A DNA stretch of 64,000 nt, taken from Candidatus Bipolaricaulota bacterium (GTDB lineage Bacteria > Bipolaricaulota > Bipolaricaulia > UBA7950 > UBA9294). The position numbers were made by a program, and so were the translations under genes. The stretch lies in the NCBI GenBank assembly GCA_026390345.1, contig JAPLGD010000072.1, positions 1,128 to 65,127 of the forward strand, in the 5' to 3' direction. The notes under the pieces are model-generated. The model was not told the origin of the DNA and made no database searches. It was given only the letters and a program-made list of their open reading frames with translations. This document shows positions 12,434 through 44,115 of this stretch, in pieces. Positions within the stretch are counted from its first letter, which is position 1, and every line of letters starts with the position of its first letter.

Positions 12434-14035
12434 ATGGGAAGAAAGGGAAACTGGCTAGTACTTGGGCTCGTGGTGTCCCTGGTCATCGGCATGGCTTCCG
12501 TGGGGTTCGGAGCGACGGACAAGTTGATCTATCTGTTCTACGGCGAGCCTGGTGAGGCTGACCCTGCTACAGCGTACGACATGCGCTCGTCGACACTGAT
12601 CAACAACGTCTATGACCGTCTCCTGACGTACGAAGGGAGCGATGCAACGAAGTTCGCGCCGATGTTGGCCGAGCGCTGGGAAGTGTCGGCCGACGGAAAG
12701 ACGGTCACGTTCCACCTCCGGAAGAACGCGACGTTCCACGACGGCTCGCCCCTGACGGCGGAGGATGTGCGCTACTCGTTCAACCGCGTTCTGACGATGA
12801 ACCAACCGCCGTCCTGGATGCTGTCGCAGATGATGAACCAGGATAGCACCGTGGTCGTTGACCCGTACACCATCGAGGTCCACTTGACGCAGGCGTACGC
12901 CGCTGCCCTGGGCGTGCTGACGCACACCGTCGCGTCGATCGTCAACTCGGCGGTCGTCGAGGCGAACGGCGGCATCGTCGCCGATCAGGAAAACACCTGG
13001 ATGAACCAGAACGAGGGCGGCGCCGGATCTGGACCGTACACGCTGAAGGAATGGATCCCGGCCGAGAGACTCACGTTCGAACGGTATGACGGCTACTGGG
13101 GCGCGAAGGCGCTGACGAAGACGATCGAGTGCCCCATCGTCCCTGAGGTCGGAACTCGCGTCCTCATGCTGCGGGCAGGGGATGCCGACGTCCACGACCA
13201 GTTCCCGGAGACGAACGTCGCTGACCTCGAAGGCGCTCCGAACCTGACGATCCTTACTCCGGCCACGTTCAACATCGACTTCATTGCGTTGGGTTGCCGC
13301 GGCCCGATGGCTGAGAAGGCCGTCCGCCAAGCGGTGTCCTACGCGTTCCCGTACGCCATGGCGCTTGAGTTCGTCTACAACGGACTCGCGATCCGATCCA
13401 CCGGCCCGATTCCGTCGGGGATGTTCGGCTACGTCGACCCTGCGGCCGACGGACGGTACGAGTACAACATCGTCAAGGCGAACCAGCTCCTGGACGCGGC
13501 CGGCTGGACTTGGGTTGCCGGTCAGGGCTACCGTGTGAAGGCCGGCGTAGAGCTTGGAATGGAGGTCTTGGCGCCGATCGGCGAGGAAGTCAAGATGCAG
13601 GAAGCCCTGCTCTGGCAGGACAGCCTCCGGCAGATCGGCTTTAACCTGAAGATCCGAGAGATCGTGTACGCCATGATGTACAGGACCGTCCGCAACCACG
13701 ACACGGACGGCATCATGTCGGGCTGGCTACCGGACTACGCGGACCCGGACAACTACGTTGACGCCATCTGCAACTCAGGAAACGCCAACGCCATCTACGG
13801 GAACCAGTACAACAACCCGGCAATGGATGCCCTGATCTTGCAGGCGAAGTCCGAAATCGACGTGGCGAAGCGTGCCGGCCTGTATCGGCAGATCCAGGAG
13901 ATCTCGTTCCAGGATGCGCCGTACATCTGGGTCTCCCAGCGGTCGAACGTTGTCATCCTCAACAACGCCGTGAAGGGCTTCTACTACAACCCGATCCTTC
14001 CGATCGACTTCGCGACGCTGTACAAGGAAGGCTAG
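12434..14035 (+). CDS. ABC transporter substrate-binding protein, family 5 (peptide), with a Sec signal peptide.
   Basis: RBS AAGGGAGG then ATG 12434. Signal MGRKGNWLVLGLVVSLVIGMASVGFGATD. Family-5 motifs (GSGPYTLKEW, GWLPDYADPDNY). Confidence 0.85.
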   Translation: MGRKGNWLVLGLVVSLVIGMASVGFGATDKLIYLFYGEPGEADPATAYDMRSSTLINNVYDRLLTYEGSDATKFAPMLAERWEVSADGKTVTFHLRKNATFHDGSPLTAEDVRYSFNRVLTMNQPPSWMLSQMMNQDSTVVVDPYTIEVHLTQAYAAALGVLTHTVASIVNSAVVEANGGIVADQENTWMNQNEGGAGSGPYTLKEWIPAERLTFERYDGYWGAKALTKTIECPIVPEVGTRVLMLRAGDADVHDQFPETNVADLEGAPNLTILTPATFNIDFIALGCRGPMAEKAVRQAVSYAFPYAMALEFVYNGLAIRSTGPIPSGMFGYVDPAADGRYEYNIVKANQLLDAAGWTWVAGQGYRVKAGVELGMEVLAPIGEEVKMQEALLWQDSLRQIGFNLKIREIVYAMMYRTVRNHDTDGIMSGWLPDYADPDNYVDAICNSGNANAIYGNQYNNPAMDALILQAKSEIDVAKRAGLYRQIQEISFQDAPYIWVSQRSNVVILNNAVKGFYYNPILPIDFATLYKEG

Positions 14036-14059
14036 GCAAGAAGGGATTTGGACCAACAC

Positions 14060-14084: not shown

Positions 14085-14141
14085 TCCTTTGATTCCACAA
14101 CCGCGGGGCGACCTCGTCCTTCCGCGGAATGAGGAGAAGAC

Positions 14142-18029: not shown

Positions 18030-18220
18030 AGATCGGTAGGCCGAGAAAAGAAGAGCCGGAGATTGCTCCTGGCGCGGAAGACTCCGGCGCCGAGCGGAAG
18101 GCGCCCGAGCTATCGCGCAAGGACATCCTCGCGGTGATCATCGCGATGTTCCAGCTCTTCCTCCCGCTGATCGTCGGTCTAGTGATCGTGGGCGCAGTCG
18201 TGGCGCTGATTCTTCGCTGA
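18026..18220 (+). CDS. Small (64 residue) C-terminally membrane-anchored protein, translationally coupled to the DppF-like ATPase.
   Basis: ATG 18026 overlaps the ATPase stop (ATGA). Charged N-terminal half, then one transmembrane helix ILAVIIAMFQLFLPLIVGLVIVGAVVALIL. Confidence 0.45.
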   Translation: MKIGRPRKEEPEIAPGAEDSGAERKAPELSRKDILAVIIAMFQLFLPLIVGLVIVGAVVALILR

Positions 18221-18253
18221 ACTCAGCGAAGCGAATCTGGAGAAGGAGACGAT

Positions 18254-19435
18254 GTGGGTCAGGCGCTAGCCGCGCTCAAGTCGCATCAGGCTTGTGAGAT
18301 TCTCAAGGAGCTGGGGGTCGACTGCTGGCTCGTCTGGGTCCGCGAGACGATGCAGATGCGTGATCCTAGCCTCGACCTCGTCTTGGGAAGTGACGTCATC
18401 GCTCAGACCGCCCTTCTCTTCACGCGGGAGGGAGAGAGGATTGCTGTCGCCCAGGAGCACGACGCCGCGGGTTTCCCGGACGGCCTATTCGATCGCACGA
18501 TCCCGTATCGAACGGGAATCGCCGAGCCTCTTCGCCGTGAGTTGGCCCGCCTGGATCCGGAACAGATCGCCCTGGACTACAGCGTCGACAACGACGCCGC
18601 AGACGGGCTGAGCGTCGGGATGCTGGAACTGCTTCGGCGGTTCCTTGACGGAACCGACTACTCGTCTCGCTTCGTGTCGGCCGGACCGCTCGTAGAGCAC
18701 CTTCGCGGCAGGAAGCTCCCGGAGGAGGTCGACCGCATTCGCGCCGCAATCTCCATCACGGAACGAATCTTCGACGATCTGCGCGGTTTCCTTCGAGTCG
18801 GCCAGACGGAACGCGAGATTGCGGAGTACGTACGTGCCCGCATCCGAGAGCTCGGCGTGAGCCCGTCGTGGGACCCGTCGTACTGCCCCGCCGTCGACGC
18901 CGGGCCGGACAAGGAGTTCGGCCACGCGGGCCCGACGGGTCTTCGGACGAAGGCTGGGCACCTGCTTCACTTCGACTTCGGGGTGAAGGCGGACGGGTAC
19001 TGCGCTGACCTCCAGCGGATGTACTTCTTCGGGGGTCCCGCCGAAATCCCGGCCGAAGTTCGACGCGCCTTTGACACGGTACGCGGCGCCATCGACGCCG
19101 CGAGCTCGTTTCTCCACCCTGGTCGGGTGGGTCATGAGGTGGACGCCGTGGCCCGCGCACACATCACCGGCGCCGGCTACGAGGAGTACGCGCACGGCCT
19201 CGGCCATCAGATCGGACGGTTCGCACACGACGGGGGGATGCGACTCGCGCCGACGTGGGAGCTGTTCGGCCGTCGCCCCTTCGGAATCGTCGAACAGGGC
19301 AACGTCTTCACCATCGAACCGAACGCCGTGACACGGAACTACGGGCGGGTCAGCCTTGAAGAGGACGTCCTGGTAACCGCCGACGGCTGCCGCTACCTCT
19401 CGACTCCACAACGCGAGCTCATCTGTCTCGAATAG
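18254..19435 (+). CDS. M24-family metallopeptidase (Xaa-Pro aminopeptidase/prolidase type).
   Basis: GTG start after GGAGAAGGAGA. N-terminal creatinase-like domain plus C-terminal pita-bread domain with conserved metal-ligand context (HGLGHQIG, FTIEP). Confidence 0.8.
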   Translation: MGQALAALKSHQACEILKELGVDCWLVWVRETMQMRDPSLDLVLGSDVIAQTALLFTREGERIAVAQEHDAAGFPDGLFDRTIPYRTGIAEPLRRELARLDPEQIALDYSVDNDAADGLSVGMLELLRRFLDGTDYSSRFVSAGPLVEHLRGRKLPEEVDRIRAAISITERIFDDLRGFLRVGQTEREIAEYVRARIRELGVSPSWDPSYCPAVDAGPDKEFGHAGPTGLRTKAGHLLHFDFGVKADGYCADLQRMYFFGGPAEIPAEVRRAFDTVRGAIDAASSFLHPGRVGHEVDAVARAHITGAGYEEYAHGLGHQIGRFAHDGGMRLAPTWELFGRRPFGIVEQGNVFTIEPNAVTRNYGRVSLEEDVLVTADGCRYLSTPQRELICLE

Positions 19436-20528
19436 GCTGGCCGATCTCGATGAGACGATCCTTCGGGAAGCGGCTCAAGACTTCGCACCCCGCGTCGGTG
19501 ATTGCGAGCATGTCCTCAATCCGGATCCCGCCGAGACCGTCCAGGTAGACTCCTGGCTCGGCCGTGCAGACCATGCCGGGTTCGTAGGCCGCCACAGCCG
19601 AGGCGCCCGAAGACGCCGGCGCCTCGTGGATCTCGATCCCGACTCCGTGGCTCAGCCCATGTGTGTACTGCGCACCGTACCCGGCGCGCTCGATCACGTC
19701 ACGCGCCGCCTTGTCGACAGTCGGTCCGGACACGCCTGGGGCAAATGCCGCGAGCCCGGCCAGGTTCGCCTCGAGCACGATGTCGTACACACGGCGCAAC
19801 GTGTCCGGAGCGCGCCCCACCGACACGGTCCGGGTGATGTCGCTCAAGTACCCCTTGTAGCGAGCCCCGATGTCGAACAGGAGCACGTCTCCCGACCGGA
19901 TCTTCTGATCGGCGGGAACGTGATGCGGCAGCGCGCTGTTCGCGCCTGCGGAGACGATCAGGTCGAAGCCGACCGCCTCCGCCCCCCGCTCGCGCATACA
20001 GCGCTCGAGAAGCCACGCAATCTGTCCCTCGGTCATCCCGGGGTGGACAGTGGCCAGCGTCTCCTTCAGCGCCTCTTCCGTGATCTCGGTGGCGCGGCGG
20101 ATCCGCGCGATCTCCTCAGCGTCCTTGACTAGGCGGACGCGGCCCACGGGGTCCTCGTCCACGACCAGCTCACAGACCCTTGCTGCCTCGAGCGCCCGCC
20201 CTGTCAACCACCCGATTCGGCGCGACGCCAGGCCGACCCGCCGGAACCCATGTTGCCTGAGGAGCGCAACGATGGCCTCTTGGTACTCCCAGCCCAAGAT
20301 CTGCCAATCCAAGTGCGGCGCCTCAGCCGACGCCATCCCGATGTTGGTGCGAGACGCGTAGGCGTGGATCGTCTCCGGCGTCACCATTAGGACTCCGAAC
20401 CCGTGATACCCGGTGAGGTAGAACATGGACGCGCGATCCGGATCCGTCGTCTCCAGGTGAACCACGAGGAAGCAGTCCGCATCGAGGGAGCTCATTAGTC
20501 GCGCTTGCCGCGCCGCGTAGTCGATCAT
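19419..20528 (-). CDS. M24-family metallopeptidase (Xaa-Pro dipeptidase/aminopeptidase).
   Basis: Trimmed to ATG at 20528 preceded by GAGAGGAGAAGC. Motifs HGLSHGVGIEIHE, CTAEPGVY, IRIEDM. It converges on the previous peptidase with a 17 nt overlap. Confidence 0.8.
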   Translation of the reverse strand: MIDYAARQARLMSSLDADCFLVVHLETTDPDRASMFYLTGYHGFGVLMVTPETIHAYASRTNIGMASAEAPHLDWQILGWEYQEAIVALLRQHGFRRVGLASRRIGWLTGRALEAARVCELVVDEDPVGRVRLVKDAEEIARIRRATEITEEALKETLATVHPGMTEGQIAWLLERCMRERGAEAVGFDLIVSAGANSALPHHVPADQKIRSGDVLLFDIGARYKGYLSDITRTVSVGRAPDTLRRVYDIVLEANLAGLAAFAPGVSGPTVDKAARDVIERAGYGAQYTHGLSHGVGIEIHEAPASSGASAVAAYEPGMVCTAEPGVYLDGLGGIRIEDMLAITDAGCEVLSRFPKDRLIEIGQPIRDR

Positions 20529-20705: not shown

Positions 20706-21806
20706 TCAGTCATCTTCACGCCCTCTTGCCTGCCGAGCTGGATTCGGCGGCACCTGCCCGGGTACCGAGCGTCCGGGTTCGCTGGCACCGGGTACAAGCG
20801 TCGATCCAAGGAGAAACCCGTCCCTCAATGGATCGTCGGAGTCGATCACGAACTCGTGACGCCCGGTCACGAAGGCGCGGCCCGAGATCTCAGGAACGAC
20901 CGCCGCGTGGTCACCGACCTGGGTCTCCTCGACGAGGCGACCGGTGAGCGTGGTGCCGATCAGGCTCTCGTGAACGAACGGCTCGTCGAGGTCGACCTCG
21001 CCCCGCGCGTAGAGGATCGCTAGACGAGCCGCCGTCCCGGTGCCACATGCGGATCGGTCGATCGCACCCGGCGGGATGACGACGGCGTTGCGGCCGGAGA
21101 CGTCGGGGTTGTCCGAGGGGGCGGTGAACTGAACGTGGGTGATCTCGTCGACCCACGCGAACTCGGGGTGGTGAACGAGAAGCTGCCGCCTCGCCGCCTC
21201 CCGCACGGCAATCCCCACCCGGACAATGTCGGAAGCGGAACTCGGAACGAGCCGCAGGCCGAAGCACTTCGCATCGACCGAGACGTACACGTTGCCACCG
21301 TACGCGACATCGACGTCCACCCTGCCGAAGCCGGGAATGTCGACCGGCGTGTCGAGCGTGAAGACGAACGCAGGGACCGAGCGGAACGAGACCCGCACGG
21401 CTCCTCCATGGTCGATGAGAACCCGAGCCGTGACGAGTCCGCCGGGCGTGTCGAGAACGACGGAAGTCTCTCCCGAGCCTCGAATCAGGCCGGCCTCGAC
21501 CAAGGCCGTGCAGCACCCGATCGTGTCGTGCCCGCACATCGGCAAGTACCCGCCGACCTCGACAAAGACGGCGCCGAAGTCCGCGTCGTGGCGACAGGGT
21601 TCCGTCAGCACGACGGCGGACATGACGCTGTTCCCCCGCGGCTCGTACACGAGGGCGGTGCGAATCCAGTCCATGTGCCTGCGAAGGTACAGAGCGCGCT
21701 CTGCAATGCTGTCGCCGGGAATCGCGGGCAGCCCTGAAAGGATCGTGCGCGTCGGCTCACCGCCGGTATGGGTGTCGATCGCTACGATGCGCTGTGTGTG
21801 AGCCAC
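20706..21806 (-). CDS. Proline racemase-family enzyme, Cys/Cys type (4-hydroxyproline epimerase or proline racemase).
   Basis: N-terminus VAIDTHTGGEPTR. First catalytic Cys in MCGHDTIG, second in DRSACGTGTAA. There is an apparent C-terminal extension of about 30 residues beyond the family end (DPLRDGFLLG). Confidence 0.8.
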   Translation of the reverse strand: MAHTQRIVAIDTHTGGEPTRTILSGLPAIPGDSIAERALYLRRHMDWIRTALVYEPRGNSVMSAVVLTEPCRHDADFGAVFVEVGGYLPMCGHDTIGCCTALVEAGLIRGSGETSVVLDTPGGLVTARVLIDHGGAVRVSFRSVPAFVFTLDTPVDIPGFGRVDVDVAYGGNVYVSVDAKCFGLRLVPSSASDIVRVGIAVREAARRQLLVHHPEFAWVDEITHVQFTAPSDNPDVSGRNAVVIPPGAIDRSACGTGTAARLAILYARGEVDLDEPFVHESLIGTTLTGRLVEETQVGDHAAVVPEISGRAFVTGRHEFVIDSDDPLRDGFLLGSTLVPGASEPGRSVPGQVPPNPARQARGREDD

Positions 21807-21896
21807 GGTCTCCCTTTCACTGTTCCGATCGCGCTGACGAGACGGTAGAAGCGGCGCTCCGCCTTGTCAAGCATCTCGCCGGAACGAGCGTGCAGT

Positions 21897-21925
21897 TTGT
21901 CGGTATACGCCGTTTCACCTACACT
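21897..21925 (+). promoter_or_regulatory. Promoter TTGTCG-17nt-TACACT placed 8 nt upstream of the regulator ATG. This gives a leaderless or near-leaderless transcript.
   Basis: Hexamers at 21897-21902 and 21920-21925. The start codon at 21934 has no RBS upstream. Confidence 0.4.
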
Positions 21926-21933
21926 GCATCAAC

Positions 21934-22536
21934 ATGGAACCCGTAGGGCAGCTCATTCGCGACCTCCGTGCGGAGAAAGGATGGACGTTGAAGGAACTCG
22001 CATCGAAGTGCGAGCTCTCAACCAGCTTTCTCTCGCAGGTCGAGCGCGGCCTCTCCTCGGTGTCGATCACGTCTCTCCACGTCATCTGCCAGGCTCTCGG
22101 GATGACGCTGGGCGAGTTCTTCCACCAGCTCGGAGACGGTGTCGGGCAGCCCGAGACCGAAGGGCGAACGCTCGAGGTCATGAAGGCGAAAGACCAGCGG
22201 GCGATTAACCTGTCGGAGGCATCCATCAAGTACCGCTTTCTCAGCCGTGAGTTTCCCGGTCGGCAGTTCGAGATCATGCTCGGGGAAATCCCGTCGGGCT
22301 ACTTCTATCCGCCGTTCTCCCACGAAGGCGAGGAGTTCGGCTACGTCCTCGAAGGCCAACTGCGACTCACGATCGGCGACGATACCTACACCCTTGGCCC
22401 CGGAGACAGCTACCACTTTGCGGCGTCGACGCCCCATGGATACCAGGCGGAGGGCGACGCAGCCGTGCGGATCCTGTGGGTTCAGACCCTGAAGTACTTC
22501 CAGACCCGCGATGGCATCCCGGCCCAGCAGGAGTGA
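21934..22536 (+). CDS. XRE-family HTH transcriptional regulator with a C-terminal cupin domain.
   Basis: N-terminus LRAEKGWTLKELASKCELSTSFLSQVERG (HTH_XRE). C-terminal cupin (FSHEGEEFGYVLEGQL). It is a paralog of the regulator at 43039..44115. Confidence 0.8.
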   Translation: MEPVGQLIRDLRAEKGWTLKELASKCELSTSFLSQVERGLSSVSITSLHVICQALGMTLGEFFHQLGDGVGQPETEGRTLEVMKAKDQRAINLSEASIKYRFLSREFPGRQFEIMLGEIPSGYFYPPFSHEGEEFGYVLEGQLRLTIGDDTYTLGPGDSYHFAASTPHGYQAEGDAAVRILWVQTLKYFQTRDGIPAQQE

Positions 22537-23533
22537 CCCGTCGAAGCTTGCGGAGAGCTCGGCGGGCGGGCGCCTTCTCTACCTGTCAAGCCAGGACGTA
22601 GAGAGGGTCGGACTCACGGAATCCGAGGTCGTGGCGGAGATCGCTTCGCTGTTCGTAGAGAAGGCCGCCGGACGAGTCGAGGCGCCACCCAAGCTCGGAG
22701 TTCATCCAACAAGGGACTCATTCCTGCACGCGATGCCAGCGCACGTTCCGGGCCGTCGCGCGACGGGGATGAAGTGGATCGGCGCATTCCCTGAGAATCG
22801 AACCCACGGGGTCCCACAGATCAGCGGGGTCATCGTGATCAACGACGACGACACCGGTCTTCCTCTCGCCATCCTCGACGCGCGCTGGGTGACGGCGAAG
22901 CGAACCGCCGCCGCGTCCGCCCTCGCAGCGAGGCACTTGGCGCGCCCGGACGCATCCAAGGTGGGGATTCTCGGCTGCGGGGTGCAGGGCCGGAGCCATC
23001 TCGTGGCCCTGTGCGCCGAGTTCCGTATCGAGGAGGTCGTCGCGTACGATCCATCCGAGGAGGCGCGAACGCTCTACGCGGAGGAGATGCGCGAGCACAC
23101 GGGCGTACGCGTTTGCCCCTCGGCCGTGCCGCGCGACGCGGTGGAGGGGCGCGACGTGGTCGTGACCGCGGGGCCGATCGCGCGAACTCCCTATGCGACC
23201 ATCGAGGCCGGCTGGCTCCCGGAGGGTGCGTTCGCCGCGGCCGTCGACTACGCGTCCGCCTGGAGCGCTGGCGCACTCGCAACATTCGACCGGATCTACA
23301 CCGACGACATCCCGCAACTCGAGGCCCAACAACGGGAAGGCTACTTCCCTGACCTCCCCGCGCCTTACGCTGACCTGGGCCAGGTTGTGGTCGGCGCAAA
23401 GCGGGGCAGGACGACCGGGAAGGACCGGATCATGGCCTGCCTCCTCGGCCTCGCGGCCGAAGATGTCGTCGTCGGCCGCCTCGTCGCCGAGCGGGCTGTC
23501 GCGAAGGGAATCGGTACCTGGCTTCCGCTGTAG
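22511..23533 (+). CDS. Ornithine cyclodeaminase/mu-crystallin family NAD(P)-dependent enzyme, likely a delta1-pyrroline-2-carboxylate (or P5C) reductase.
   Basis: OCD-family pattern LYLSSQDVERVGL...GAFPENR...GILGCGVQGRSHL (Rossmann). It sits next to a Cys/Thr proline-racemase-family dehydratase. Confidence 0.7.
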   Translation: MASRPSRSDPSKLAESSAGGRLLYLSSQDVERVGLTESEVVAEIASLFVEKAAGRVEAPPKLGVHPTRDSFLHAMPAHVPGRRATGMKWIGAFPENRTHGVPQISGVIVINDDDTGLPLAILDARWVTAKRTAAASALAARHLARPDASKVGILGCGVQGRSHLVALCAEFRIEEVVAYDPSEEARTLYAEEMREHTGVRVCPSAVPRDAVEGRDVVVTAGPIARTPYATIEAGWLPEGAFAAAVDYASAWSAGALATFDRIYTDDIPQLEAQQREGYFPDLPAPYADLGQVVVGAKRGRTTGKDRIMACLLGLAAEDVVVGRLVAERAVAKGIGTWLPL

Positions 23534-23553: not shown

Positions 23554-24615
23554 GTGAACGTGGAGCGAACGCTCGGAGAGCGAAGTCAGACGACGGAATG
23601 GCGCTCGCGCGAGGGGTGGCAAGCGTTTCGAACGGTCGACCTCCATGCAGCGGGCGAGCCGTTGCGCATCGTGACCGAGGGCTTTCCTGAGCTCCGCGGC
23701 GCGACGATGCTTGAGCGCCGACAGGATGCTCGAGCGCGCTGCGACGGGCTGCGGCGGATTCTCATGTGGGAGCCCCGCGGCCACGCCGACATGTATGGGT
23801 GTCTCGTCACTCCTCCTGCGACCGACGACGCGGACTTCGGCGTTCTCTTCATGCACAACGAGGGGTGGAGCACCATGTGCGGTCACGGCGTGATCGCCGT
23901 GACGACGGCGGCCATCGAGCTCGGATGGGTCGCCGCACAAGAACCTGAGACGACGGTGCGAATCGACGCCCCGGCGGGCCGAATCACGGCGGTGGCGCAC
24001 CTCGAGGTTGGACACGTCCGCGCGGTCCGGTTCCGCAACGTCCCGTCGTTCGTGCTCGCCTTGGATCAGGCGGTCGACGTTCCCGGGATCGGGCGCGTTC
24101 GATACGACCTCGCGTTCGGCGGTGCGTTCTACGCGTACGTGGACGCCGCGGACGTGGGACTCCGGTGCGCCCCCGAGGAGGTCGAGGCGTTGATCGTCGC
24201 AGGCCGCGCCATCAAGCACGCCGTCGTGGCTCAGCGCTCGATTCCGCATCCCCTCGACCCCGACCTAGGCTTCCTCTACGGCGTGATCCTCATCGCGCCG
24301 CCGCTCTCGGACGAAGCGGACAGCCGAAACGTCTGCGTCTTCGCGGACGGCGAGGTCGACCGAAGCCCGACCGGCACCGGGGTAAGCGGCCGGCTGGCGC
24401 TGCACTACGCGCGCGGCGAATTGGAGCTGGGACAGCCATTGGTAATCGAGAGCATCCTCGGCACTCGCTTCACAGGCCGCGTCGCGGAGGAGACGACGTG
24501 TGGCGCGTTCGCGGCCGTGGTCCCGGAGGTCGAGGGCACGGCACACATCACCGGCTACCACACGTTCGTCGTCGATCCCGACGACCCGCTCCGGGCGGGG
24601 TTTCTCGTGCGGTAG
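23554..24615 (+). CDS. Proline racemase-family enzyme, Cys/Thr type, predicted trans-3-hydroxy-L-proline dehydratase.
   Basis: DLHAAGEPLRIVTEG. First catalytic Cys in MCGHGVIA. The second catalytic position is Thr (DRSPTGTGVS), the hallmark of characterised T3LHyp dehydratases. Confidence 0.75.
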   Translation: MNVERTLGERSQTTEWRSREGWQAFRTVDLHAAGEPLRIVTEGFPELRGATMLERRQDARARCDGLRRILMWEPRGHADMYGCLVTPPATDDADFGVLFMHNEGWSTMCGHGVIAVTTAAIELGWVAAQEPETTVRIDAPAGRITAVAHLEVGHVRAVRFRNVPSFVLALDQAVDVPGIGRVRYDLAFGGAFYAYVDAADVGLRCAPEEVEALIVAGRAIKHAVVAQRSIPHPLDPDLGFLYGVILIAPPLSDEADSRNVCVFADGEVDRSPTGTGVSGRLALHYARGELELGQPLVIESILGTRFTGRVAEETTCGAFAAVVPEVEGTAHITGYHTFVVDPDDPLRAGFLVR

Positions 24616-24644: not shown

Positions 24645-27011
24645 CTACGCCTCGCTGTGCGCGGTGCGGGCGATGACCTCCTCCTGCAACGCCCGGTCGA
24701 GGGCGTGGAAGTAGTCGCTGTACCCGGCCACTCGAACGATCAGGTCTCGGTACTCCTCCGGGTTCTCCTGCGCACGCCTCAACGTGGCGGTATCGACGAC
24801 GTTGAATTGGATGTGGTGGCCATCGTACCGGAAGTACGTCCTCACGATCGCCGCCACCTTCCGCAGCCCCTCCTCGTCCTTGAGGACGTCAGGAAGGAAT
24901 CGCTGGTTGAGGAGAGTGCCCCCCGTGCGGACGTGGTCGATCTTCCCCACGGAGCGAATGACGGCCGTCGGTCCGTGCGTGTCGGCCCCCTGCGTCGGCG
25001 AGATCCCGTCGGACAGTGGAATCCCGGCGCGGCGGCCGTTCGGTGTGGCACCGACCTTCTCACCAAAGAAGACGTGGACCGTGGTCGGCAGGAGGTTGAC
25101 GCGGTGCGCGCCGCCCTTCGTGTTCGGCCGCCCGTCGATGGCATCGAAGTACGCGTCGAAGATCCGCCGCGCGATGTCGTCGGCGCGGTCGTCGTCGTTG
25201 CCGAAGAACGGGGTCTCGTGCACGAGCAGGTTACGCTCGGCGTCGTGCCCCGCGAAGTCAGCCGCGAGGACTCGAAGCAGGCGGTCCATCGAGAAAGACT
25301 TGCGCACGAACACGTGCTCGCGGATCGCCGAGAGGGAGTCGGTCGCTGTCCCCATCCCGACCCCCTGGATGTACGTCGACTTGTACCGCGGACCCGAGCC
25401 GTTGTAGTCCTGGCCCTTCTCGATGCAGTCGTCGACGAGCACCGAGATGAACGGAGCGGGCATGTGCTCGGCGAAGATTCGCTCAATGCGACCGTTGCCC
25501 TCGACCTTGACGTCCACGAAGTGGCGAAGCTGCTTCTCGAACGCGTCGAAGACCTGCTCGAAGCTCTCGAACGTGCGCGGGTCGCCCGTGCTCGGCCCGA
25601 TCCGACGGCCGCTATTTGGGTCGACGCCGTCGTGGAGCGCCAGCTCGAGGAGCTTCGGCCAGTTCATGTAGCCGGTCAGAATGCAGCTCTCCTTGCCGAA
25701 CGCGCTGATCTCGACGCAGCCGCTCGGCCCGCCGGAGCGGGCGTCACGTAGGCTCTTTCCGACGCGCAGGAACTCCTGCACGATCGCGTCCGTGTTGAAG
25801 ATCGACGGCTGGCCGAACCCCTTCCGAATCACCTCGAGGGTCCGGAGCAGGAATCGGTCAGGGCTCTTCTTTGAGAGCTGCACGCACGATCCGGTGTACG
25901 GGAGCCGCATCTCCTCGATCACGTCAAGCACGAGGTAGGACAGCTCGTTGACGGCGTCGGCTCCGTCCGGGGTCACGCCTCCGACGTTGATCAGGGTGAA
26001 GTCGTTGTACGTCGCGCTCTGCTCTTCCGTCACGCCGACCTTCGGGGGTGCTGGTTGGTTCGAGAACTTCACCCAGAAGCACTCGAGCAGCTCCTTCGCG
26101 CCGTCCCGGGTCAGCCGGCCTGCGTCGACGTCCCGCCGGTAGAACGGGTACAGGTTCACGTCGAGACGTCCCGGGTTGTAGGAGTCCCACTCGTTCAGCT
26201 CGGTGACGACGCCCAAGTGGACGAACCAGTACATCTGCAACGCCTCGCGGAACGTCCGCGGAGCGTGGGCCGGTACCCACGAGCAGATCTCGGCAATCTC
26301 GAGCAGCTCGGCGCGGCGCGCTGGGGTCTTCGCCTCGCCTGCCATGCGCCGCGCGAGATCGGCGTACCGCCCGACAAGTCGGATGAGCGCGTCGCAGACG
26401 ATTTCCATCGCGTCGAGTTCGTCGACCCGCGCCGCGCGGTCCGCAACGTCGGAGGTTCGGAAGCGGTCCCGTGCTTCGGCAATCCGTGCCTTGAAGTCGA
26501 GGAAGCCATGGCGATAGATCTTGTCGTCGAGGATTGCGTGGCCTGGCGCCCGCTGCTCCATGAACTCCGTGAACACCCCCGCGTCGAACGCCGCGTGCCA
26601 GTCTTCGGACATCGCCGCGAACACCCGCTCGCGGAGGCTCTTTCCTTTCCAGAAGGGGATGATCCTCGACTCGTACAGCGTCTTCGTCGCGTCATCCACG
26701 AGGAACGGCGTCTTCCGGCGGGTCGAGAGGACCCGAAGATCCTCGAGCGAGTGGCAGCACAATTCGGGGTATGTCGACGTCGCGCGGGGCCGCGGGCCCC
26801 TCTCGCCAACGATCAGCTCGTCGTCCCCGATGTAGATCGTTTCGTTCTCGAGGATGTAGCGGAATCCCCGTGCGCGATGGACAGGAACGGACTCGCGTAG
26901 GGTCGCACTCTCGCGCTCGAAGCGCGTCAGGAGTTCCGCGCGTTCGCCGCTCACGCTCGGGCGGGTCGTCACGCATTCGGTTCGCAACCGCTCCACTCTC
27001 TCGTTCATCAT
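24645..27011 (-). CDS. Glycyl radical enzyme of the dehydratase/eliminase class, most similar in architecture to trans-4-hydroxy-L-proline dehydratase (HypD).
   Basis: 788 residues. C-terminal glycyl radical motif IVRVAGYSDYF. Active-site Cys loop GCVE (GGPSGCVEISAFG) as in HypD, CutC and glycerol dehydratase. PFL-like fold length. Confidence 0.85.
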   Translation of the reverse strand: MMNERVERLRTECVTTRPSVSGERAELLTRFERESATLRESVPVHRARGFRYILENETIYIGDDELIVGERGPRPRATSTYPELCCHSLEDLRVLSTRRKTPFLVDDATKTLYESRIIPFWKGKSLRERVFAAMSEDWHAAFDAGVFTEFMEQRAPGHAILDDKIYRHGFLDFKARIAEARDRFRTSDVADRAARVDELDAMEIVCDALIRLVGRYADLARRMAGEAKTPARRAELLEIAEICSWVPAHAPRTFREALQMYWFVHLGVVTELNEWDSYNPGRLDVNLYPFYRRDVDAGRLTRDGAKELLECFWVKFSNQPAPPKVGVTEEQSATYNDFTLINVGGVTPDGADAVNELSYLVLDVIEEMRLPYTGSCVQLSKKSPDRFLLRTLEVIRKGFGQPSIFNTDAIVQEFLRVGKSLRDARSGGPSGCVEISAFGKESCILTGYMNWPKLLELALHDGVDPNSGRRIGPSTGDPRTFESFEQVFDAFEKQLRHFVDVKVEGNGRIERIFAEHMPAPFISVLVDDCIEKGQDYNGSGPRYKSTYIQGVGMGTATDSLSAIREHVFVRKSFSMDRLLRVLAADFAGHDAERNLLVHETPFFGNDDDRADDIARRIFDAYFDAIDGRPNTKGGAHRVNLLPTTVHVFFGEKVGATPNGRRAGIPLSDGISPTQGADTHGPTAVIRSVGKIDHVRTGGTLLNQRFLPDVLKDEEGLRKVAAIVRTYFRYDGHHIQFNVVDTATLRRAQENPEEYRDLIVRVAGYSDYFHALDRALQEEVIARTAHSEA

Positions 27012-35871: not shown

Positions 35872-35902
35872 GCTGTCCTTGCGCTCGGTTTCGAGCGACG
35901 AA

Positions 35903-35932: not shown

Positions 35933-35941
35933 CGTTACGGG

Positions 35942-37522
35942 CTATCTGCCCATCGCCTCTTTCGCCTTCATGTTGATCCGCCACATGTGCATGTTCTCGC
36001 TCGGACCAATGAAGACGATGGTCTCCTGCGGCCCGACGATGTACGCCTGGCGGGCGAACAGGGTCGGCTTCTGATACGGATAGAACGCCAGCGCGTGCGA
36101 CGCGATCAGCGGCTGCACCTGCTCGTAGAGCGCGAGGCGCTTCGCTGAGTCGGGCTCCGCCCGCGTCGCGTCGAGAATCCGGATGATCTCGGGGTCGTCA
36201 AAGAACCAGTGAGCCTCGAAGATCCATCCGAGTCCCTTCGGCGCGAACATCGCGTACGTGTAGTAATCGTGCGTCGGCGCGGACTGTGGGCCGAACAGGA
36301 AGATCGTCATGTTCGGCGTCGTCTCGGGAGATGAGCACTCCGCGGAGTACTGCGGCCACGGGGGTCCGGTGACCTCCACCGTCACGCCGAGTTGCGCCAT
36401 GTCCGCCTGCAGTTGAAGCCCAACCTCTTCCTCGAACCCCAAGCCTCCGCAGAAGTGGAAGCTGACCTTGACGTTCTTCAGGTCCTTCGCGTACTTGGAG
36501 AGCGCCAACTCCTGGCGCGCCCGCTCGAGGTTCTGCTTGCGCGGCTGCGGGTCAATGGCCACGTACCCCGGCATGTTCGGCAGCAGGATGCCGGTTTCGC
36601 CGTTCCCGAACTGCATCCACGGGCCGACGATGCCCTCGTAGTCAAACGCGTAGAGGATCGCCTTGCGGAAGTGCTCGTCGTCGGTCGGCGGCACCTTGGA
36701 GTTCATCCACACCGTGACGTTCTGCGCCCAGACGCTCGAGAACGCGAGCGTCGAATCCTTCTTGATCTCCCCGAGCTGCGGCAGGGTCCAGCCGCCGTTG
36801 ATCTCGAGGTCGAGTCCGCCGCTCTTCAGGAGGGTCATCAGGGTCGTGTAGTCGGTCTCCATGATGAAGACCAACTGCTCGATCGGAACCTCGTCCGGTC
36901 CCCAGCCCGCGTTCGACCACCCCTCGAAGTAGTCCACGAACCGCACGGCGTCGAGGCGCTGGCCCGGGATGTGGCCGGTCATCCGATACGGACCGGTCCC
37001 GGCGTCGTGCGTCGTCAACCAGTCTTCGCCGTAGTCACCGAACTCTCCGTAGTTGCCAGCTTTGACGTTCGCAAGCACAACGGCCTTCTCCACCGGGAAG
37101 AACAGCACCAGGAGGTCCGGGAAGATGGCGCTCGGTTTGTCGAGAACGAAGTCGACAGTGTACCGGTCGACGACGGCCGCGGTAACCTTCCCCAGCGGGC
37201 CCGAGTTGCCCCGCCCCATCGCGATGAACCGCGTCATCGAGAACGCGACGTCCTCCGCCGTGAGCTCATTGCCCGAATGGAACTTCACTCCCTGCCGGAG
37301 CACGAACCTCCAGCGGGTGAAGTCTCCCCCGACCGGTTCCCAGCTCGTCGCCAGATGAGCCCGAACTCCGCCCTCCGGGGCGGGGTAGACGAGCGGGCTG
37401 TACAGGTTGTACATCGTCTCCGTGTCATACCAGTCCGACGCGGTGGCCGGGTCCGCCGTAATGACGGGGTACCCATTGATGACGGCCACGTTGTCCGTGG
37501 CGCCCAGCCTCGGAATCCTCAC
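35942..37522 (-). CDS. ABC transporter substrate-binding protein, family 5 (peptide), with no recognisable signal peptide as encoded.
   Basis: 526 residues with family-5 SBP motifs (ITADPATASDWYDTETMYN, MPGYVAIDPQ). The GTG start at 37522 is preceded by gagagaggtga. None of the three upstream frames encodes a hydrophobic signal region. Confidence 0.7.
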   Translation of the reverse strand: MRIPRLGATDNVAVINGYPVITADPATASDWYDTETMYNLYSPLVYPAPEGGVRAHLATSWEPVGGDFTRWRFVLRQGVKFHSGNELTAEDVAFSMTRFIAMGRGNSGPLGKVTAAVVDRYTVDFVLDKPSAIFPDLLVLFFPVEKAVVLANVKAGNYGEFGDYGEDWLTTHDAGTGPYRMTGHIPGQRLDAVRFVDYFEGWSNAGWGPDEVPIEQLVFIMETDYTTLMTLLKSGGLDLEINGGWTLPQLGEIKKDSTLAFSSVWAQNVTVWMNSKVPPTDDEHFRKAILYAFDYEGIVGPWMQFGNGETGILLPNMPGYVAIDPQPRKQNLERARQELALSKYAKDLKNVKVSFHFCGGLGFEEEVGLQLQADMAQLGVTVEVTGPPWPQYSAECSSPETTPNMTIFLFGPQSAPTHDYYTYAMFAPKGLGWIFEAHWFFDDPEIIRILDATRAEPDSAKRLALYEQVQPLIASHALAFYPYQKPTLFARQAYIVGPQETIVFIGPSENMHMWRINMKAKEAMGR

Positions 37523-37649
37523 GCTGCATCACCTCTCTCCGCTTCTTTCAGCCACGCACATGCCTCCTTCGGGTTCACCTCTGCTGCCGGTTCCACCTCC
37601 TCGTTCGATCCATCTCCGCGGCCGCGGCGGCTGTCGCCGCCGCGCCTCC

Positions 37650-38762
37650 TCAGTCAACGATCAAGAGCTCGTGAGTCACGGTCGTCATCGGCACGCCTCC
37701 CGACTCCGAGACCACGACGACGTCCTCGATGCGAACCCCGAAGCGTCCCGAGAGGTACACGCCCGGCTCGACGGAGAAGGCCATCCCGGGCTCGAGCAAC
37801 GTCTTGTTCCCCGCGACGATGTACGGGGGTTCGTGGATATCGAGGCCGATGCCGTGTCCCGTGCGGTGGATGAAGCGATCGCCCAATCCGGACGACGTCA
37901 GGAAGTCGCGCGCCACGCGGTCGATCTCCTCGGCCGGCACGCCTGGGCGCACGGCGTCCACGGCACGCTGCTGCGCTTCGCGAACCGCGTCGTAAACCGT
38001 TCGGACCTCGTTCGACGGCTCGCCGCATATGACGGTCCGGCTGATGTCCGAACGGTAGCCGCCCGTGCGGCACCCGTAGTCAAGAATGACCACATCGCCG
38101 CTTGCGATCCGCCGCCCCCCCGCCCGGTAGTGCGGCAGCGCCGCCGCCGGCCCCGATGCGACCAACGGGCTGAATGCCGTGTTGTCAGCCCCCGCGCTCC
38201 GCATCGCGTCCACCAGAACCGCGGCGATCTCGAGCTCCGTGCGTCCGACAAACGGCGTCTCGATGACCCTCCGGAACGCCTCGTCGGCGATCGCACCGGC
38301 TCGACGCAGGAGCTCCACTTCCTGGGCATCCTTTCTCATCCGGAGCTTGGCGAGGACCGGCGTCGCGCTCGAGAACGCGTGCTGGGGCAGCGCCTTCTGG
38401 CACGCGAGAAGGAACTCCGCCCAGAGAGACTCCTCGACCAGGACCGGTCCCGGCGATCGCGCGACATCCTTCAGTGCCGCCGCGAGGGCATCGTGAGAGC
38501 CCTCGTGGTCCGCCCACACGAAGTGCTTCGCGAACCCGGTGTCGGCCCGCACCTGCTCCGCGTAGAGTTCCGGGACCACGAAGGCCGGTTCGCCCTCCCG
38601 CGGAACCAGAACCACCAAGAGGCGCTCGCCCGGCTCGTCGGTGAACCCCGTCAGGTAGCGCATCGACGAGGACAGACCGACGATCAAGAGGCTTGCGGGG
38701 CTCTCCCCCAACTCACGTTGCACGGCGGACAGCCGCTCACCGTACGGCTTCACGTTGGTCAT
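37650..38762 (-). CDS. M24-family metallopeptidase (Xaa-Pro dipeptidase/aminopeptidase), third copy in the window.
   Basis: 370 residues. Motifs RTGHGIGLDIHEPPYI, FSVEPGVY, VRIEDVVVV. Its start overlaps the upstream stop. Confidence 0.8.
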   Translation of the reverse strand: MTNVKPYGERLSAVQRELGESPASLLIVGLSSSMRYLTGFTDEPGERLLVVLVPREGEPAFVVPELYAEQVRADTGFAKHFVWADHEGSHDALAAALKDVARSPGPVLVEESLWAEFLLACQKALPQHAFSSATPVLAKLRMRKDAQEVELLRRAGAIADEAFRRVIETPFVGRTELEIAAVLVDAMRSAGADNTAFSPLVASGPAAALPHYRAGGRRIASGDVVILDYGCRTGGYRSDISRTVICGEPSNEVRTVYDAVREAQQRAVDAVRPGVPAEEIDRVARDFLTSSGLGDRFIHRTGHGIGLDIHEPPYIVAGNKTLLEPGMAFSVEPGVYLSGRFGVRIEDVVVVSESGGVPMTTVTHELLIVD

Positions 38763-39247
38763 CTTGTCGACTTGCCTCCTCGGTCCGCACGACGCGGAGC
38801 GTCACTCTCCTGAACCCGCGTTACATGGATCGTTTCGATGCCGTGTTGCCAGATTCGAACGCCGATCTCGGCGATTTTCGGCCACTGATCCTGTGACACG
38901 CGCGCGAAGACGTTGACCGGTAGGTTGCCGCGGTGGTCGCGGACGACTTCGGCGCCGTAGTACACAGAGAGCGCCTCGCTGGCACCCTCGGCCTTCTCCC
39001 ACTCGCGCCAGTAGATGACGTCCCCGGTATTCACGGTCGATGTGTCGTTCTCGCGCGGCGGCGCGGAACGCCCGAGCGCGACCGGGAAGTAGACCTCGCG
39101 CCCGCACCAACGCGTGTGGTAGGCCGTTGCCTCGAGCGGCAGGGCCGAGATAACCGCAGCGATCGTCCGTGGCGCGAGGTCGGGTAGAACATCGGCGACG
39201 AGCACTCCGCCGCGCTCGAACTCCAGCCGAATGCGCTCGACCGTCAC
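38759..39247 (-). CDS. Small (162 residue) conserved hypothetical protein embedded between hyuB and the M24 peptidase.
   Basis: ORF with 4-nt overlaps on both sides. No recognisable catalytic motif. It has an ordinary (non-artefactual) amino-acid composition. Confidence 0.5.
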   Translation of the reverse strand: MTVERIRLEFERGGVLVADVLPDLAPRTIAAVISALPLEATAYHTRWCGREVYFPVALGRSAPPRENDTSTVNTGDVIYWREWEKAEGASEALSVYYGAEVVRDHRGNLPVNVFARVSQDQWPKIAEIGVRIWQHGIETIHVTRVQESDAPRRADRGGKSTR

Positions 39248-43046: not shown

Positions 43047-44115
43047 TGCTTCCTCCTGATGGTCGAGGTTTCGGATGACCGACCCCGGTCGTCCCCTGCA
43101 GAGAGTTCTCCGTAGCCGCCTGCCACGCCCGCTCCGTCTCGATCGACCCGGGGGCCGATCGAGCCAGGAGCAGCTTGGCTCCCCCGTTCTGCGTCGTCGC
43201 ACAACCTCGGTGACTGAGAGCCGGGAGGTGGTAGCAGTCACCGGATCCGAGGGCGTAGCCCTCTTCTCCGATCGTCAGTTGAATGCGCCCCTCGAGGACG
43301 AATCCGAACTCCTCCCCTTCGTACGCTCCCAGCTCCTGTGAAAAGCCGGATGGGATCTCCGCCACGAGTACCTCCAGCGACCCCGCAGGGAGCGTGCCGC
43401 TCAAGAAGCGGTACGTAACCGTGCTGTCCGAAAGCTTCACGTGATCCGCGCCATCGTCGCCCCCTAGAAGGGGAACCCGCATCTCCTGGGCTCCCGGAAG
43501 GTCGGGGAGTTCGGCGCCCAGAAGCGCGATCGCCTTGGCGTAGCGCGCCGTCTGCACCCACAGCACCTTCGCCGCGGACTCGGCCGCCGCACATCGGTGG
43601 GACGTCGCGGCAAGCAGGTGGTAGCTGTCCCCAACTCCGAGGTGGTGCTCCGCCTCGCCGATCGTCAGGTCGATGGCCCCGTCTAGGACGTAGCCGAACT
43701 CCTCCCCCTCGTGAACGTGGGATTCGTGCGAGCTTCCTTGCGTCATCTCGCCGATCAGCACTTCGAAGCGCCGGCCGGGGAACTCGGCGCTCAAGAAGCG
43801 ATACTTGATGGACGTATCGGACAGGCTGACGTACGAGCGGTTGTCTCCCTTCGTGATCGCCGCGGGGCGCGGATCAGCGAGGAACGCCTTCCCGGGGCCG
43901 TTCGACATCACGAGCATGTCAGCCAAGGCAACATCCAACGCTTCACAGATGGCGCGCAGGGACGGAATGGAGAACGACGACAGTCCACGCTCGATCTGAG
44001 ATAGAAAACCCACCGAGAGACCGCATTGCTCCGAGAGCAAGCGGAGGGTCAACCCACGTTGACGCCGTAGGTATCGTAGTTTGCGCCCAACTTCCTGGAG
44101 GCGTTCAGTCTCCAT
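43039..44115 (-). CDS. XRE-family HTH transcriptional regulator with two C-terminal cupin domains.
   Basis: N-terminus LRRQRGLTLRLLSEQCGLSVGFLSQIERG. Two cupin repeats (HVHEGEEFGYVLDG and YEGEEFGFVLEG). It is a paralog of the regulator at 21934..22536. Confidence 0.8.
   Translation of the reverse strand: METERLQEVGRKLRYLRRQRGLTLRLLSEQCGLSVGFLSQIERGLSSFSIPSLRAICEALDVALADMLVMSNGPGKAFLADPRPAAITKGDNRSYVSLSDTSIKYRFLSAEFPGRRFEVLIGEMTQGSSHESHVHEGEEFGYVLDGAIDLTIGEAEHHLGVGDSYHLLAATSHRCAAAESAAKVLWVQTARYAKAIALLGAELPDLPGAQEMRVPLLGGDDGADHVKLSDSTVTYRFLSGTLPAGSLEVLVAEIPSGFSQELGAYEGEEFGFVLEGRIQLTIGEEGYALGSGDCYHLPALSHRGCATTQNGGAKLLLARSAPGSIETERAWQAATENSLQGTTGVGHPKPRPSGGSNV

Follow-up and report, generated by a model that had tools for sequence, protein, structure and literature searches.

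A three-module locus for the predicted anaerobic use of hydroxyproline and proline-containing compounds in an uncultured Bipolaricaulota bacterium

The stretch of DNA considered here, referred to as the window, comprises 64,000 nucleotides (nt) from the metagenome-assembled genome of a Candidatus Bipolaricaulota bacterium (assembly GCA_026390345.1, contig JAPLGD010000072.1, positions 1,128 to 65,127 of the forward strand). At 12434-44115 it carries a locus of 26 genes, which includes those of the glycyl radical enzyme HypD, two peptide-type ATP-binding cassette (ABC) importers, three M24 peptidases and two pairs of HyuAB-type enzymes. An initial annotation had described this locus as an island for the anaerobic use of collagen-type proline (Pro) and hydroxyproline (Hyp) peptides. 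The GC content of the window is approximately 66%, and raw lists of its open reading frames (ORFs) are full of spurious frames; coding frames were chosen by third-position GC, starts were fixed from start codons and ribosome-binding sites, and the gene products were scanned against Pfam and NCBIfam. The resulting features are collected in Table 1. All of the genes in the earlier inventory are real and lie at the coordinates given for them, but the gene for DUF3830 and a 64-residue ORF had been overlooked.

Table 1. Genes and sequence elements of the locus, with positions in the window and the supporting matches
Feature	Position	Strand	Evidence and remarks
Binding protein A, family-5, signal peptide	12434..14035	+	SBP_bac_5 4e-90; N-terminus MGRKGNWLVLGLVVSLVIGMASVGFG
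System A permeases (two)	14142-15161, 15158-16117	+	BPD_transp_1 with BPD_transp_1_N or OppC_N
System A ATPases (two)	16078-17067, 17064-18029	+	ABC_tran and oligo_HPY
Small ORF, 64 residues, C-terminal membrane helix	18026..18220	+	Conserved in relatives
M24a, divergent, no Creatinase_N	18254..19435	+	Peptidase_M24 6e-40; weak NCBIfam matches only
M24b, prolidase-like	19419..20528	-	Peptidase_M24 7e-67 and Creatinase_N; start ATG 20528 with ribosome-binding site
Cys/Cys PRAC protein, putative epimerase	20706..21806	-	Pro_racemase 4e-111; MCGHD...DRSACGTG
XRE-cupin regulator A, 200 residues	21934..22536	+	HTH_3 and Cupin_2
OCD/mu-crystallin reductase, probable delta1-pyrroline-2-carboxylate reductase	22511..23533	+	OCD_Mu_crystall 1e-56
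Cys/Thr PRAC protein	23554..24615	+	MCGHG...DRSPTGTG; 6r76 3.3e-130; human 7qpo 1.3e-93
HypD, glycyl radical enzyme	24645..27011	-	NCBIfam NF043068 1167.1 bits (cutoff 1100); 6vxc 4e-299
Glycyl-radical activase, radical SAM	27013..27957	-	TIGR02494 357 bits (cutoff 174)
HyuA1 and HyuB1	31977-29929, 29932-28103	-	Hydantoinase_A/B; caprolactamase models 510 and 262 bits (cutoff 1000); no DUF3830 partner
System B ATPases (two)	33952-32951, 32954-31974	-	ABC_tran and oligo_HPY
System B permeases (two)	35871-34852, 34848-33952	-	BPD_transp_1
Binding protein B, family-5	35942..37522	-	SBP_bac_5 5.5e-51; no signal/anchor segment in this assembly
M24c, prolidase-like	37650..38762	-	Creatinase_N and Peptidase_M24; 4rgz 5e-84
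DUF3830, cyclophilin-like fold	38759..39247	-	Pfam DUF3830; constant partner of this HyuAB subfamily
HyuA2 and HyuB2	43046-41001, 41004-39244	-	Pfam; caprolactamase models 556 and 285 bits (cutoff 1000)
XRE regulator B, two cupin domains, 358 residues	43039..44115	-	HTH_3 and two Cupin_2
Promoter-like TTGACC-17-TAGAAT	44122..44150	-	Single consensus match; regional count not above shuffles
Palindrome GTGAAC-N3-GTTCAC, operator candidate	44157..44171	.	Unique in window; 0.03 expected by chance

The first part of the locus lies on the plus strand, where the genes of binding protein A, two permeases and two ATPases are followed by the small membrane ORF and M24a. These give way to a minus-strand pair, M24b and a proline racemase (PRAC) family gene with a Cys/Cys pair, and then to a plus-strand trio of the XRE-cupin regulator A gene, an OCD-family gene and, 20 nt downstream of the latter, a PRAC-family gene with a Cys/Thr pair. 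The remainder is a single minus-strand run from 44115 down to 24645, in which regulator B is followed by HyuA2, HyuB2, DUF3830, M24c and binding protein B, and subsequently by two permeases, two ATPases, HyuA1, HyuB1, the activase and the glycyl radical enzyme. This run had been credited with 16 genes joined by 4-nt overlaps; it consists of 14 genes, and its 13 junctions comprise six overlaps of 4 nt, one of 8 nt and one of 1 nt, and gaps of 127, 70, 3, 145 and 1 nt. The coordinates of the two junctions previously singled out for transcript mapping, 31974/31977 and 27957/28103, are correct.

The genes fall into three modules. Module A consists of HypD and its activase; module B of regulator B, HyuA, HyuB, DUF3830, an M24 peptidase and importer B, followed here by the second HyuAB pair; and module C of importer A, two M24 peptidases, the putative Cys/Cys epimerase, regulator A, and the OCD and Cys/Thr proteins. 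The GC content of the locus (0.62-0.70) is the same as that of its flanks, with no compositional shift, and the window holds no tRNA; there is thus no sign that the locus is a discrete or mobile island. No integrase-like domain was found among the ORFs scanned, and the mobile-island reading was dropped on these grounds. A mosaic of three modules, which relatives arrange in differing orders, is a more fitting description of the locus.

By its sequence, the glycyl radical enzyme of module A is well supported as a bona fide trans-4-hydroxy-L-proline dehydratase, HypD, and the initial annotation had been right to list it together with an activase. It exceeds the cutoff of the NCBIfam HypD model, the next-best model scoring 657 bits, and is 54% identical to Clostridioides difficile HypD (6vxc), with 15 of 15 active-site residues identical in the alignment. 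The catalytic and Hyp-binding residues listed in the structural study of HypD (PMC7077986) that are kept include Gly765 and Cys434-Val-Glu436, together with the Hyp-specific His160, Asp278, Ser334, Asp339, Phe340, Tyr450 and Thr645 (C. difficile numbering). The hydroxyproline-acting relatives HpyG, HpzG and HplG (PMC13450708) score under half of the HypD match of the window enzyme. A look-up of the exact HypD sequence yielded no record. The activase gene lies 1 nt upstream of hypD and stands beside it in most related loci; its protein scores 353 bits against the HypD-activase equivalog, under the cutoff of 425. On this very strong homology, the two proteins would convert trans-4-hydroxy-L-proline to pyrroline-5-carboxylate. 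The window encodes no enzymes for the further use of pyrroline-5-carboxylate and proline.

The second hydroxyproline route would be provided by the Cys/Thr, OCD and Cys/Cys proteins of module C, all of which are present as initially annotated. The match of the Cys/Thr protein to 6r76, which we take to be the trans-3-hydroxyproline (3-Hyp) dehydratase of Thermococcus litoralis, spans residues 14-353, i.e., the full length, and the protein also matches the human trans-3-Hyp dehydratase (7qpo). Its NCBIfam scores lie under the cutoffs (431 vs 540 for NF045511, the t3LHyp dehydratase model, and 234 vs 550 for NF047722). Among solved structures, the OCD protein is closest to a pyrroline-2-carboxylate reductase (6t3e, 2.8e-43), an archaeal alanine dehydrogenase being nearly equal (4.5e-39), and the protein passes no NCBIfam cutoff. 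It is well supported from these alignments that the two proteins best match the characterized trans-3-Hyp dehydratase and pyrroline-2-carboxylate reductase of T. litoralis (the LhpH/LhpI pair). The claim that 4-Hyp and 3-Hyp each have a dedicated enzyme here is supported, strongly so in the case of HypD. Judging from homology and conserved neighborhoods, the Cys/Thr enzyme would dehydrate trans-3-hydroxy-L-proline to pyrroline-2-carboxylate, which the OCD protein would then reduce to L-proline, while the Cys/Cys enzyme would interconvert the D and L epimers of hydroxyproline.

The specificity of the Cys/Cys protein was approached through the residues that align with those of TlProR (6j7c). Racemases carry Phe at sites 1 and 5, whereas Hyp epimerases have a residue other than Phe at site 1, a His at site 4 that is reported to be specific, and Cys or Tyr at site 5 (PMC4364671). 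In the window protein, sites 1, 4 and 5 are Ser, His and Ile, respectively; the first two are epimerase-like, but the Ile fits neither class. Its NCBIfam scores are under the cutoff for both the proline racemase model (350 vs 556) and the epimerase model (318 vs 376). A hydroxyproline epimerase seems a better fit than a proline racemase, although this is not conclusive. A cluster in T. litoralis unites Cys/Thr, OCD and Cys/Cys members, and its authors noted in 2014, before HypD was known, that 'PFL' genes flank such clusters (PMC4141209); in the same year, t3Hyp dehydratase neighborhoods with OCD genes, ABC transporters and peptidases were described (PMC4113996). The 3-Hyp module is therefore of an already known kind.

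Both importers are complete family-5 ABC systems, each comprising a binding protein, two permeases and two oligo_HPY ATPases, and the three M24 proteins of the earlier inventory are likewise present. The five metal ligands (Asp, Asp, His, Glu, Glu) are invariant in M24a, M24b and M24c; none of the three passes an NCBIfam equivalog cutoff, and the closest solved relatives of M24c are the prolidases of Thermococcus and Pyrococcus. Homology and conserved context suggest that importer A takes up Xaa-Pro and Xaa-Hyp peptides, which the M24 enzymes would split. The 64-residue ORF overlaps the stop codon of the second system A ATPase by 4 nt and is kept at the same position in related loci, which are designated here by L numbers (L058, 80%; L016, 77%; L070; L146).

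The binding proteins differ in their export features, since binding protein A has a signal peptide and binding protein B is without one in this assembly. The latter begins VRIPRLGATDN, where its 97%-identical homologue in L084 reads MRIPRLLGVAVALSAFTVGLLCFIGLGATDN, and alignment of the DNA with L084 reveals a clean 60-nt in-frame deletion at the start of the gene (region 37460-37530) that removes the hydrophobic segment LGVAVALSAFTVGLLCFIGL. This deletion may reflect a genuine loss of export or an error of assembly. The solved relatives of binding protein B are all distant, including AgaA (6hlx, 1e-18), which we take to be an agropinic-acid (lactam opine) binding protein, and an attempt to read the ligand of binding protein B from them was dropped because of that distance.

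The two HyuAB pairs, both confirmed, are paralogous, with 46% identity between the A subunits and 39% between the B subunits. Their solved relatives are a fused N-methylhydantoinase-type protein and caprolactamase (7hk5, 7e-94, and 6yra, 3.5e-74, for HyuA2B2), and the only NCBIfam matches are to subunits of caprolactamase and acetophenone carboxylase, all far under the cutoff. In both HyuB proteins, the motifs VVD, TH.PD and GH match, by eye, the CapB metal-site residues D41, H99, D101 and H124, which are essential in that enzyme (PMC8453981). The family is believed to act by phosphorylating a lactam in the form of its iminol tautomer (PMC8453981). Additionally, caprolactamase is without 5-oxoprolinase activity, and its authors considered that many 'oxoprolinase' annotations probably denote lactamases or cyclic dipeptide hydrolases (PMC6061476). 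A literature search returned nothing relevant linking hydroxyproline with hydantoinase-family enzymes.

DUF3830 belongs to a small family, with 444 cluster representatives at E <=0.001 among 1.84 billion, and a literature search found no paper on it. A protein with 100% identity to that of the window is annotated in a metagenome-assembled genome of Candidatus Bipolaricaulota, and across 34 sequences of the subfamily found here 40 positions are invariant, many of them polar or aromatic. Its AlphaFold model (pLDDT 90) matches 3kop, a cyclophilin-like protein of no assigned function (2e-10), and the substrate-binding domain of the KslB/McbB Pictet-Spenglerases. A role as a cyclophilin-type prolyl isomerase was considered and set aside as speculation at most, proven isomerases being only marginal structural matches (E ~1e-3, TM ~0.5).

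The regulators A and B had been called paralogous XRE-cupin proteins, in agreement with their 46% identity. A palindrome lies 42-56 nt upstream of the regulator B gene, where it overlaps a promoter-like site, and in at least 21 related loci the regulator-B homologue is preceded, at the same offset, by an identical palindrome. It is probably the operator of regulator B. Since the palindrome is unique in the window and kept at the same offset in these loci, there is good evidence that the module B cassette is an autonomously regulated unit. On its own, GTGTTCAC has six matches in the window (1.2 expected), four of which are inside genes. An operator common to all of the intergenic regions of the locus was also sought; shared 9-mers gave only short, uninformative matches, and the idea was abandoned. 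One 9-mer, CTACACTGC, itself includes a TACACT -10-like box and is found in the region upstream of regulator A (21807-21933), ~12 nt before the ATG, a position that suggests a near-leaderless transcript; it is also present upstream of binding protein A (12320-12335).

The distribution of these modules was assessed in two ways. In 79 genome loci seeded on HypD and searched with the window proteins, the full window order recurs in the close relatives L016 and L058 and partly in L070, and HypD is 94% identical in Ca. Bipolaricaulis sp. loci. L058, whose HypD is 94% identical to that of the window, has no OCD gene, which is missing between the Cys/Thr gene and regulator A (~13430-13510). In other Bipolaricaulota (L002, L004, L005, L008, L017), a cassette of XRE-2cupin regulator, HyuA, HyuB, DUF3830, M24 and importer genes stands directly beside hypD, without the second HyuAB pair. 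Furthermore, the Cys/Thr gene, often with the OCD gene, adjoins hypD in loci of Bipolaricaulota, Aminicenantes, Gemmatimonadota and Desulfosarcina. The comparison of gene neighborhoods that the initial annotation had called for thus bears out a linkage of HypD with the 3-Hyp genes that recurs in several phyla, but not a fixed island order.

The second search was a metagenome scan seeded on DUF3830 alone, in which neighbors were scored by tblastn over 43 loci of >=10 kb (GC 0.44-0.67). HyuA and HyuB accompany DUF3830 in 41 of the 43 loci, binding protein B in 36, M24c in 31 and the XRE-2cupin regulator, which heads the cassette, in 24; HypD with its activase is found in 17 and the second HyuAB pair, located after the ATPases, in nine. 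The cassette is also present on a Hadesarchaea contig. The XRE-2cupin regulator, HyuA, HyuB, DUF3830, M24 and ABC importer genes are a conserved unit in bacteria and archaea. In the cassette loci, HypD is 54-94% identical to that of the window, and its position relative to the cassette takes at least four forms: it may lie upstream, on either the same or the opposite strand, follow the ATPases, or come directly after DUF3830.

Several of these loci carry additional genes. A gene insert or an equal-sized gap separates DUF3830 from M24 in five loci (L116, L104, L105, L118, L008), and in both of the loci that were scanned the insert is an aldehyde:ferredoxin oxidoreductase (L116, 10440-12404; L104, 5823-7784), which might oxidize the ring-opened HypD product, glutamate semialdehyde, to glutamate. 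A connection with proline and hydroxyproline is again suggested by further neighbors. In L090, the genes between the HyuA-HyuB-DUF3830 trio and hypD encode a Thermus-type proline dehydrogenase, an aldo-keto reductase and a Cys/Cys PRAC protein, and a DAO-type flavoenzyme is encoded near the cassette in L131. In L120, where HypD is absent, the cassette ATPases are followed by aconitase X (AcnX, 17860-20034), whose sole NCBIfam match, under the cutoff, is to cis-3-hydroxy-L-proline dehydratase. L098 carries a second, divergent DUF3830 (47% identity), followed by an M19 membrane dipeptidase and another HyuA (17310-20427); this looks like a variant cassette with a different dipeptidase.

From the homologies and conserved neighborhoods above, we consider it likely that the window holds a chromosomal catabolic locus for the import of small Pro/Hyp peptides or peptide-like compounds and for anaerobic hydroxyproline use, organized in three modules; the core of the initial annotation, a locus for the anaerobic use of Pro/Hyp peptides, is supported. 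Such a locus would take up Pro/Hyp compounds, free the imino acids and channel the hydroxyprolines to central metabolism without oxygen. The epithet 'collagen-type' is too specific, because Hyp-rich glycoproteins of plants and algae are Hyp sources as plausible as collagen in the habitats of this phylum. Strict anaerobiosis had also been argued from a class 1B dihydroorotate dehydrogenase, with which the PyrK-like and DHO_dh genes at 46875-48553 are consistent; as a marker it does not hold, given that the class is found in aerotolerant Firmicutes too. The sole closed genome of the phylum has been read as that of an anaerobic peptide and amino-acid fermenter, with no mention of proline or glycyl radical enzymes (PMC6092417), and our literature search found no report of hydroxyproline metabolism in Bipolaricaulota.

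Within this framework, the gene context of module B suggests that it imports a compound with a stable cyclic amide and opens the ring at the cost of ATP; its dipeptidase would then split the opened product and supply proline or hydroxyproline to modules A and C. Our best guess for the substrate is a cyclic dipeptide that contains Pro or Hyp; a pyroglutamyl-type dipeptide or another lactam of similar kind would be further candidates. More specifically, we tentatively propose, as a possibility that falls well short of probable, that HyuA, HyuB and DUF3830 form a hitherto uncharacterized ATP-dependent hydrolase for Pro/Hyp cyclic dipeptides (2,5-diketopiperazines) or a related Hyp-bearing lactam. 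In such a scheme, the importer would take up the ring compound, and the enzyme would phosphorylate and hydrolyze the only amide that bears an N-H, releasing a linear Xaa-Pro or Xaa-Hyp; the M24 prolidase of the same operon would cut this product, and HypD and the 3-Hyp enzymes would consume the freed hydroxyproline. An N-H is needed in the substrate because the family is thought to act through the iminol tautomer. In cyclo(Xaa-Pro/Hyp), only the Pro-CO-NH-Xaa amide has one, so that its cleavage would leave Xaa-Pro or Xaa-Hyp, and cyclic dipeptides are preferred among the candidates since these products are substrates of the adjacent prolidase-type M24.

Three other explanations have to be weighed, two of which concern module B. 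The initial annotation had assigned 5-oxoproline to HyuAB, such that both pairs would be 5-oxoprolinases converting free 5-oxoproline from N-terminal pyroglutamyl peptides to glutamate. This is quite improbable. In its favor, peptide breakdown commonly yields 5-oxoproline, the names of the Pfam families refer to hydantoinase/oxoprolinase, and among solved structures HyuB2 is closest to a fused protein of 1288 residues that is of the eukaryotic oxoprolinase/N-methylhydantoinase type. Against it, no NCBIfam 5-oxoprolinase model matches, the caprolactamase models match at only a quarter to half of their cutoff, and the locus is without a pyroglutamyl peptidase. In addition, caprolactamase itself and the doubts of its authors about such annotations (PMC6061476) speak against 5-oxoproline, as does the tie of the pair to a dipeptide-type importer, a dipeptidase and DUF3830, and its recurrence near Hyp rather than glutamate enzymes. 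Alternatively, the modules could be unrelated, with module B degrading another cyclic amide (a hydantoin, a dihydropyrimidine-like compound or an opine-type lactam) and standing beside HypD through the shared ancestry of a few lineages rather than through a common pathway. An NCS1 permease of the hydantoin/allantoin type lies inside one cassette and a thiohydantoin-desulfurase-like gene beside another, the Chloroflexi trio adjoins sugar genes and an amidohydrolase, the presumed lactam-opine binder AgaA is among the distant relatives of binding protein B, and 26 of the 43 cassette loci have no HypD within reach. However, the number of gene orders in which HypD accompanies the cassette, at widely varying identity to the window enzyme, argues for repeated selection of the linkage; loci without HypD hold other proline or hydroxyproline enzymes or dipeptidases, and a prolidase-like M24 lies inside the cassette in 31 of the 43 loci. 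This alternative is unlikely.

The third explanation concerns module C, whose Cys/Thr, OCD and Cys/Cys proteins might serve general proline, D-proline or pipecolate/lysine metabolism, the Cys/Cys protein being a proline racemase. The closest solved relative of the latter is indeed a proline racemase (7pb3, 1e-86), as is its top NCBIfam model, and the breadth of the T. litoralis system, whose OCD protein reduces piperideine-2-carboxylate and whose cluster has been proposed for several pathways, points the same way. On the other hand, the Cys/Thr pair has so far been linked to trans-3-Hyp dehydration and the match to the characterized enzyme is full-length; the Cys/Cys protein is without the Phe at site 1 that is reported as restricted to racemases and carries the His reported as specific to Hyp epimerases, and the window has no gene for D-proline reductase or proline dehydrogenase. 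General proline metabolism is thus a quite unlikely role for these proteins.

Set against the hydroxyproline reading itself are a number of points. Besides HypD, no enzyme of the locus passes an NCBIfam equivalog cutoff, and the OCD, M24 and HyuAB proteins are far below theirs. The piperideine-2-carboxylate activity of the T. litoralis OCD protein counts here too, as does the proposal that its cluster functions in D-proline and lysine metabolism (PMC4141209). In this assembly, binding protein B is without a signal or anchor segment, and importer B may therefore not work here. In Chloroflexi, the HyuA-HyuB-DUF3830 trio has no M24 or HypD nearby. The 43 loci include near-duplicates (L116/L118, L132/L135, L148/L150, L081/L082), such that the counts overstate independence, and most of the evidence that ties module B to HypD stems from related lineages. 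Finally, in a scan meant to define operon boundaries, terminator-like and promoter-like matches were no commoner than in shuffles.

HypD and the 3-Hyp pathway are of already known kinds, as is their occurrence alongside peptidases and transporters. What is new is the joining of HypD, the 3-Hyp pathway and peptide uptake in one locus of an uncultured environmental phylum, and a conserved HyuAB-DUF3830 cassette with its own probable operator that is repeatedly linked to hydroxyproline enzymes. To our knowledge, studies of HypD-dependent anaerobic hydroxyproline use have dealt almost exclusively with Firmicutes and Bacteroidetes of the gut. The locus would extend the ecological reach of the HypD pathway to a deep-branching, largely uncultured environmental phylum, and it suggests that in digesters, sediments and subsurface habitats Hyp-rich proteins do serve as a substrate. 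The cassette presents a biochemical target, namely, which stable cyclic amide feeds hydroxyproline metabolism. If the diketopiperazine proposal were true, it would provide the first function for DUF3830, the first genetic basis for the microbial breakdown of the very stable and widespread cyclic dipeptides and an unrecognized supply route for anaerobic hydroxyproline metabolism.

Outside the 26 genes, the window holds several further features. A third family-5 ABC system runs off the edge of the window (2-2852, plus strand); its visible part consists of the last portion of a binding protein and two permeases, with no ATPase genes after them. Directly upstream of the locus (6477-12218, plus strand) lie genes for a MoxR-type AAA ATPase, a BatA-like protein and a large VWA-domain protein, a set that resembles an aerotolerance operon. 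On the minus strand, an ORF of ~1670 residues (52081-57096) encodes beta-helix repeats, several PKD domains and a caspase-like Peptidase_C14. A flavin-reductase-like gene (44313-44879, minus strand) lies on the cassette strand between the gene for glutaminyl-tRNA synthetase and that of regulator B, and it has the same neighbors in L084.

Four known systems come closest to the locus. In Agrobacterium, agropinic-acid catabolism on Ti plasmids employs a family-5 importer and a HyuA/HyuB-like lactamase. The window resembles this system in pairing a family-5 ABC importer with a HyuAB-type enzyme that would open the imported lactam, and AgaA is among the few, albeit distant (1e-18), solved relatives of binding protein B; in contrast to the window, the agropinic-acid system has no DUF3830, M24 or Hyp enzymes, and its substrate is a sugar-amino-acid opine. 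With caprolactamase CapAB of Pseudomonas jessenii (6yra), N-methylhydantoinase and eukaryotic 5-oxoprolinase, the window HyuAB proteins share the A/B architecture over full-length matches. The CapB metal-site residues are apparently kept in HyuB, as judged by eye, and the ATP-driven opening of an otherwise stable cyclic amide is to be expected of them as of CapAB-type lactamases. Nevertheless, they score far under all curated cutoffs, and, unlike the characterized lactamases, their subfamily has DUF3830 as a constant third partner and is encoded in a predicted operon that also holds genes for a dipeptidase and a dipeptide-type importer.

The LhpH/LhpI/TlProR cluster of T. litoralis has a trio of the same families (a Cys/Thr dehydratase, an OCD-family pyrroline-2-carboxylate reductase and a Cys/Cys epimerase), and its proteins are the best or near-best solved relatives of the window trio. 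The window differs in having no proline dehydrogenase genes and, at specificity sites 1, 4 and 5, in Ser/His/Ile of its Cys/Cys protein compared with Phe/Leu/Trp of TlProR; moreover, the close relative L058 lacks the OCD member. With HypD of C. difficile and other gut anaerobes (6vxc/6vxe), the window enzyme shares the equivalog family, the Gly loop, the Cys-Val-Glu loop, the Hyp-binding residues and the adjoining dedicated activase. Contrary to the C. difficile setting, no pyrroline-5-carboxylate reductase gene is adjacent; instead, HypD of this uncultured, high-GC environmental phylum sits between a 3-Hyp module and a predicted ATP-dependent lactamase/importer cassette.

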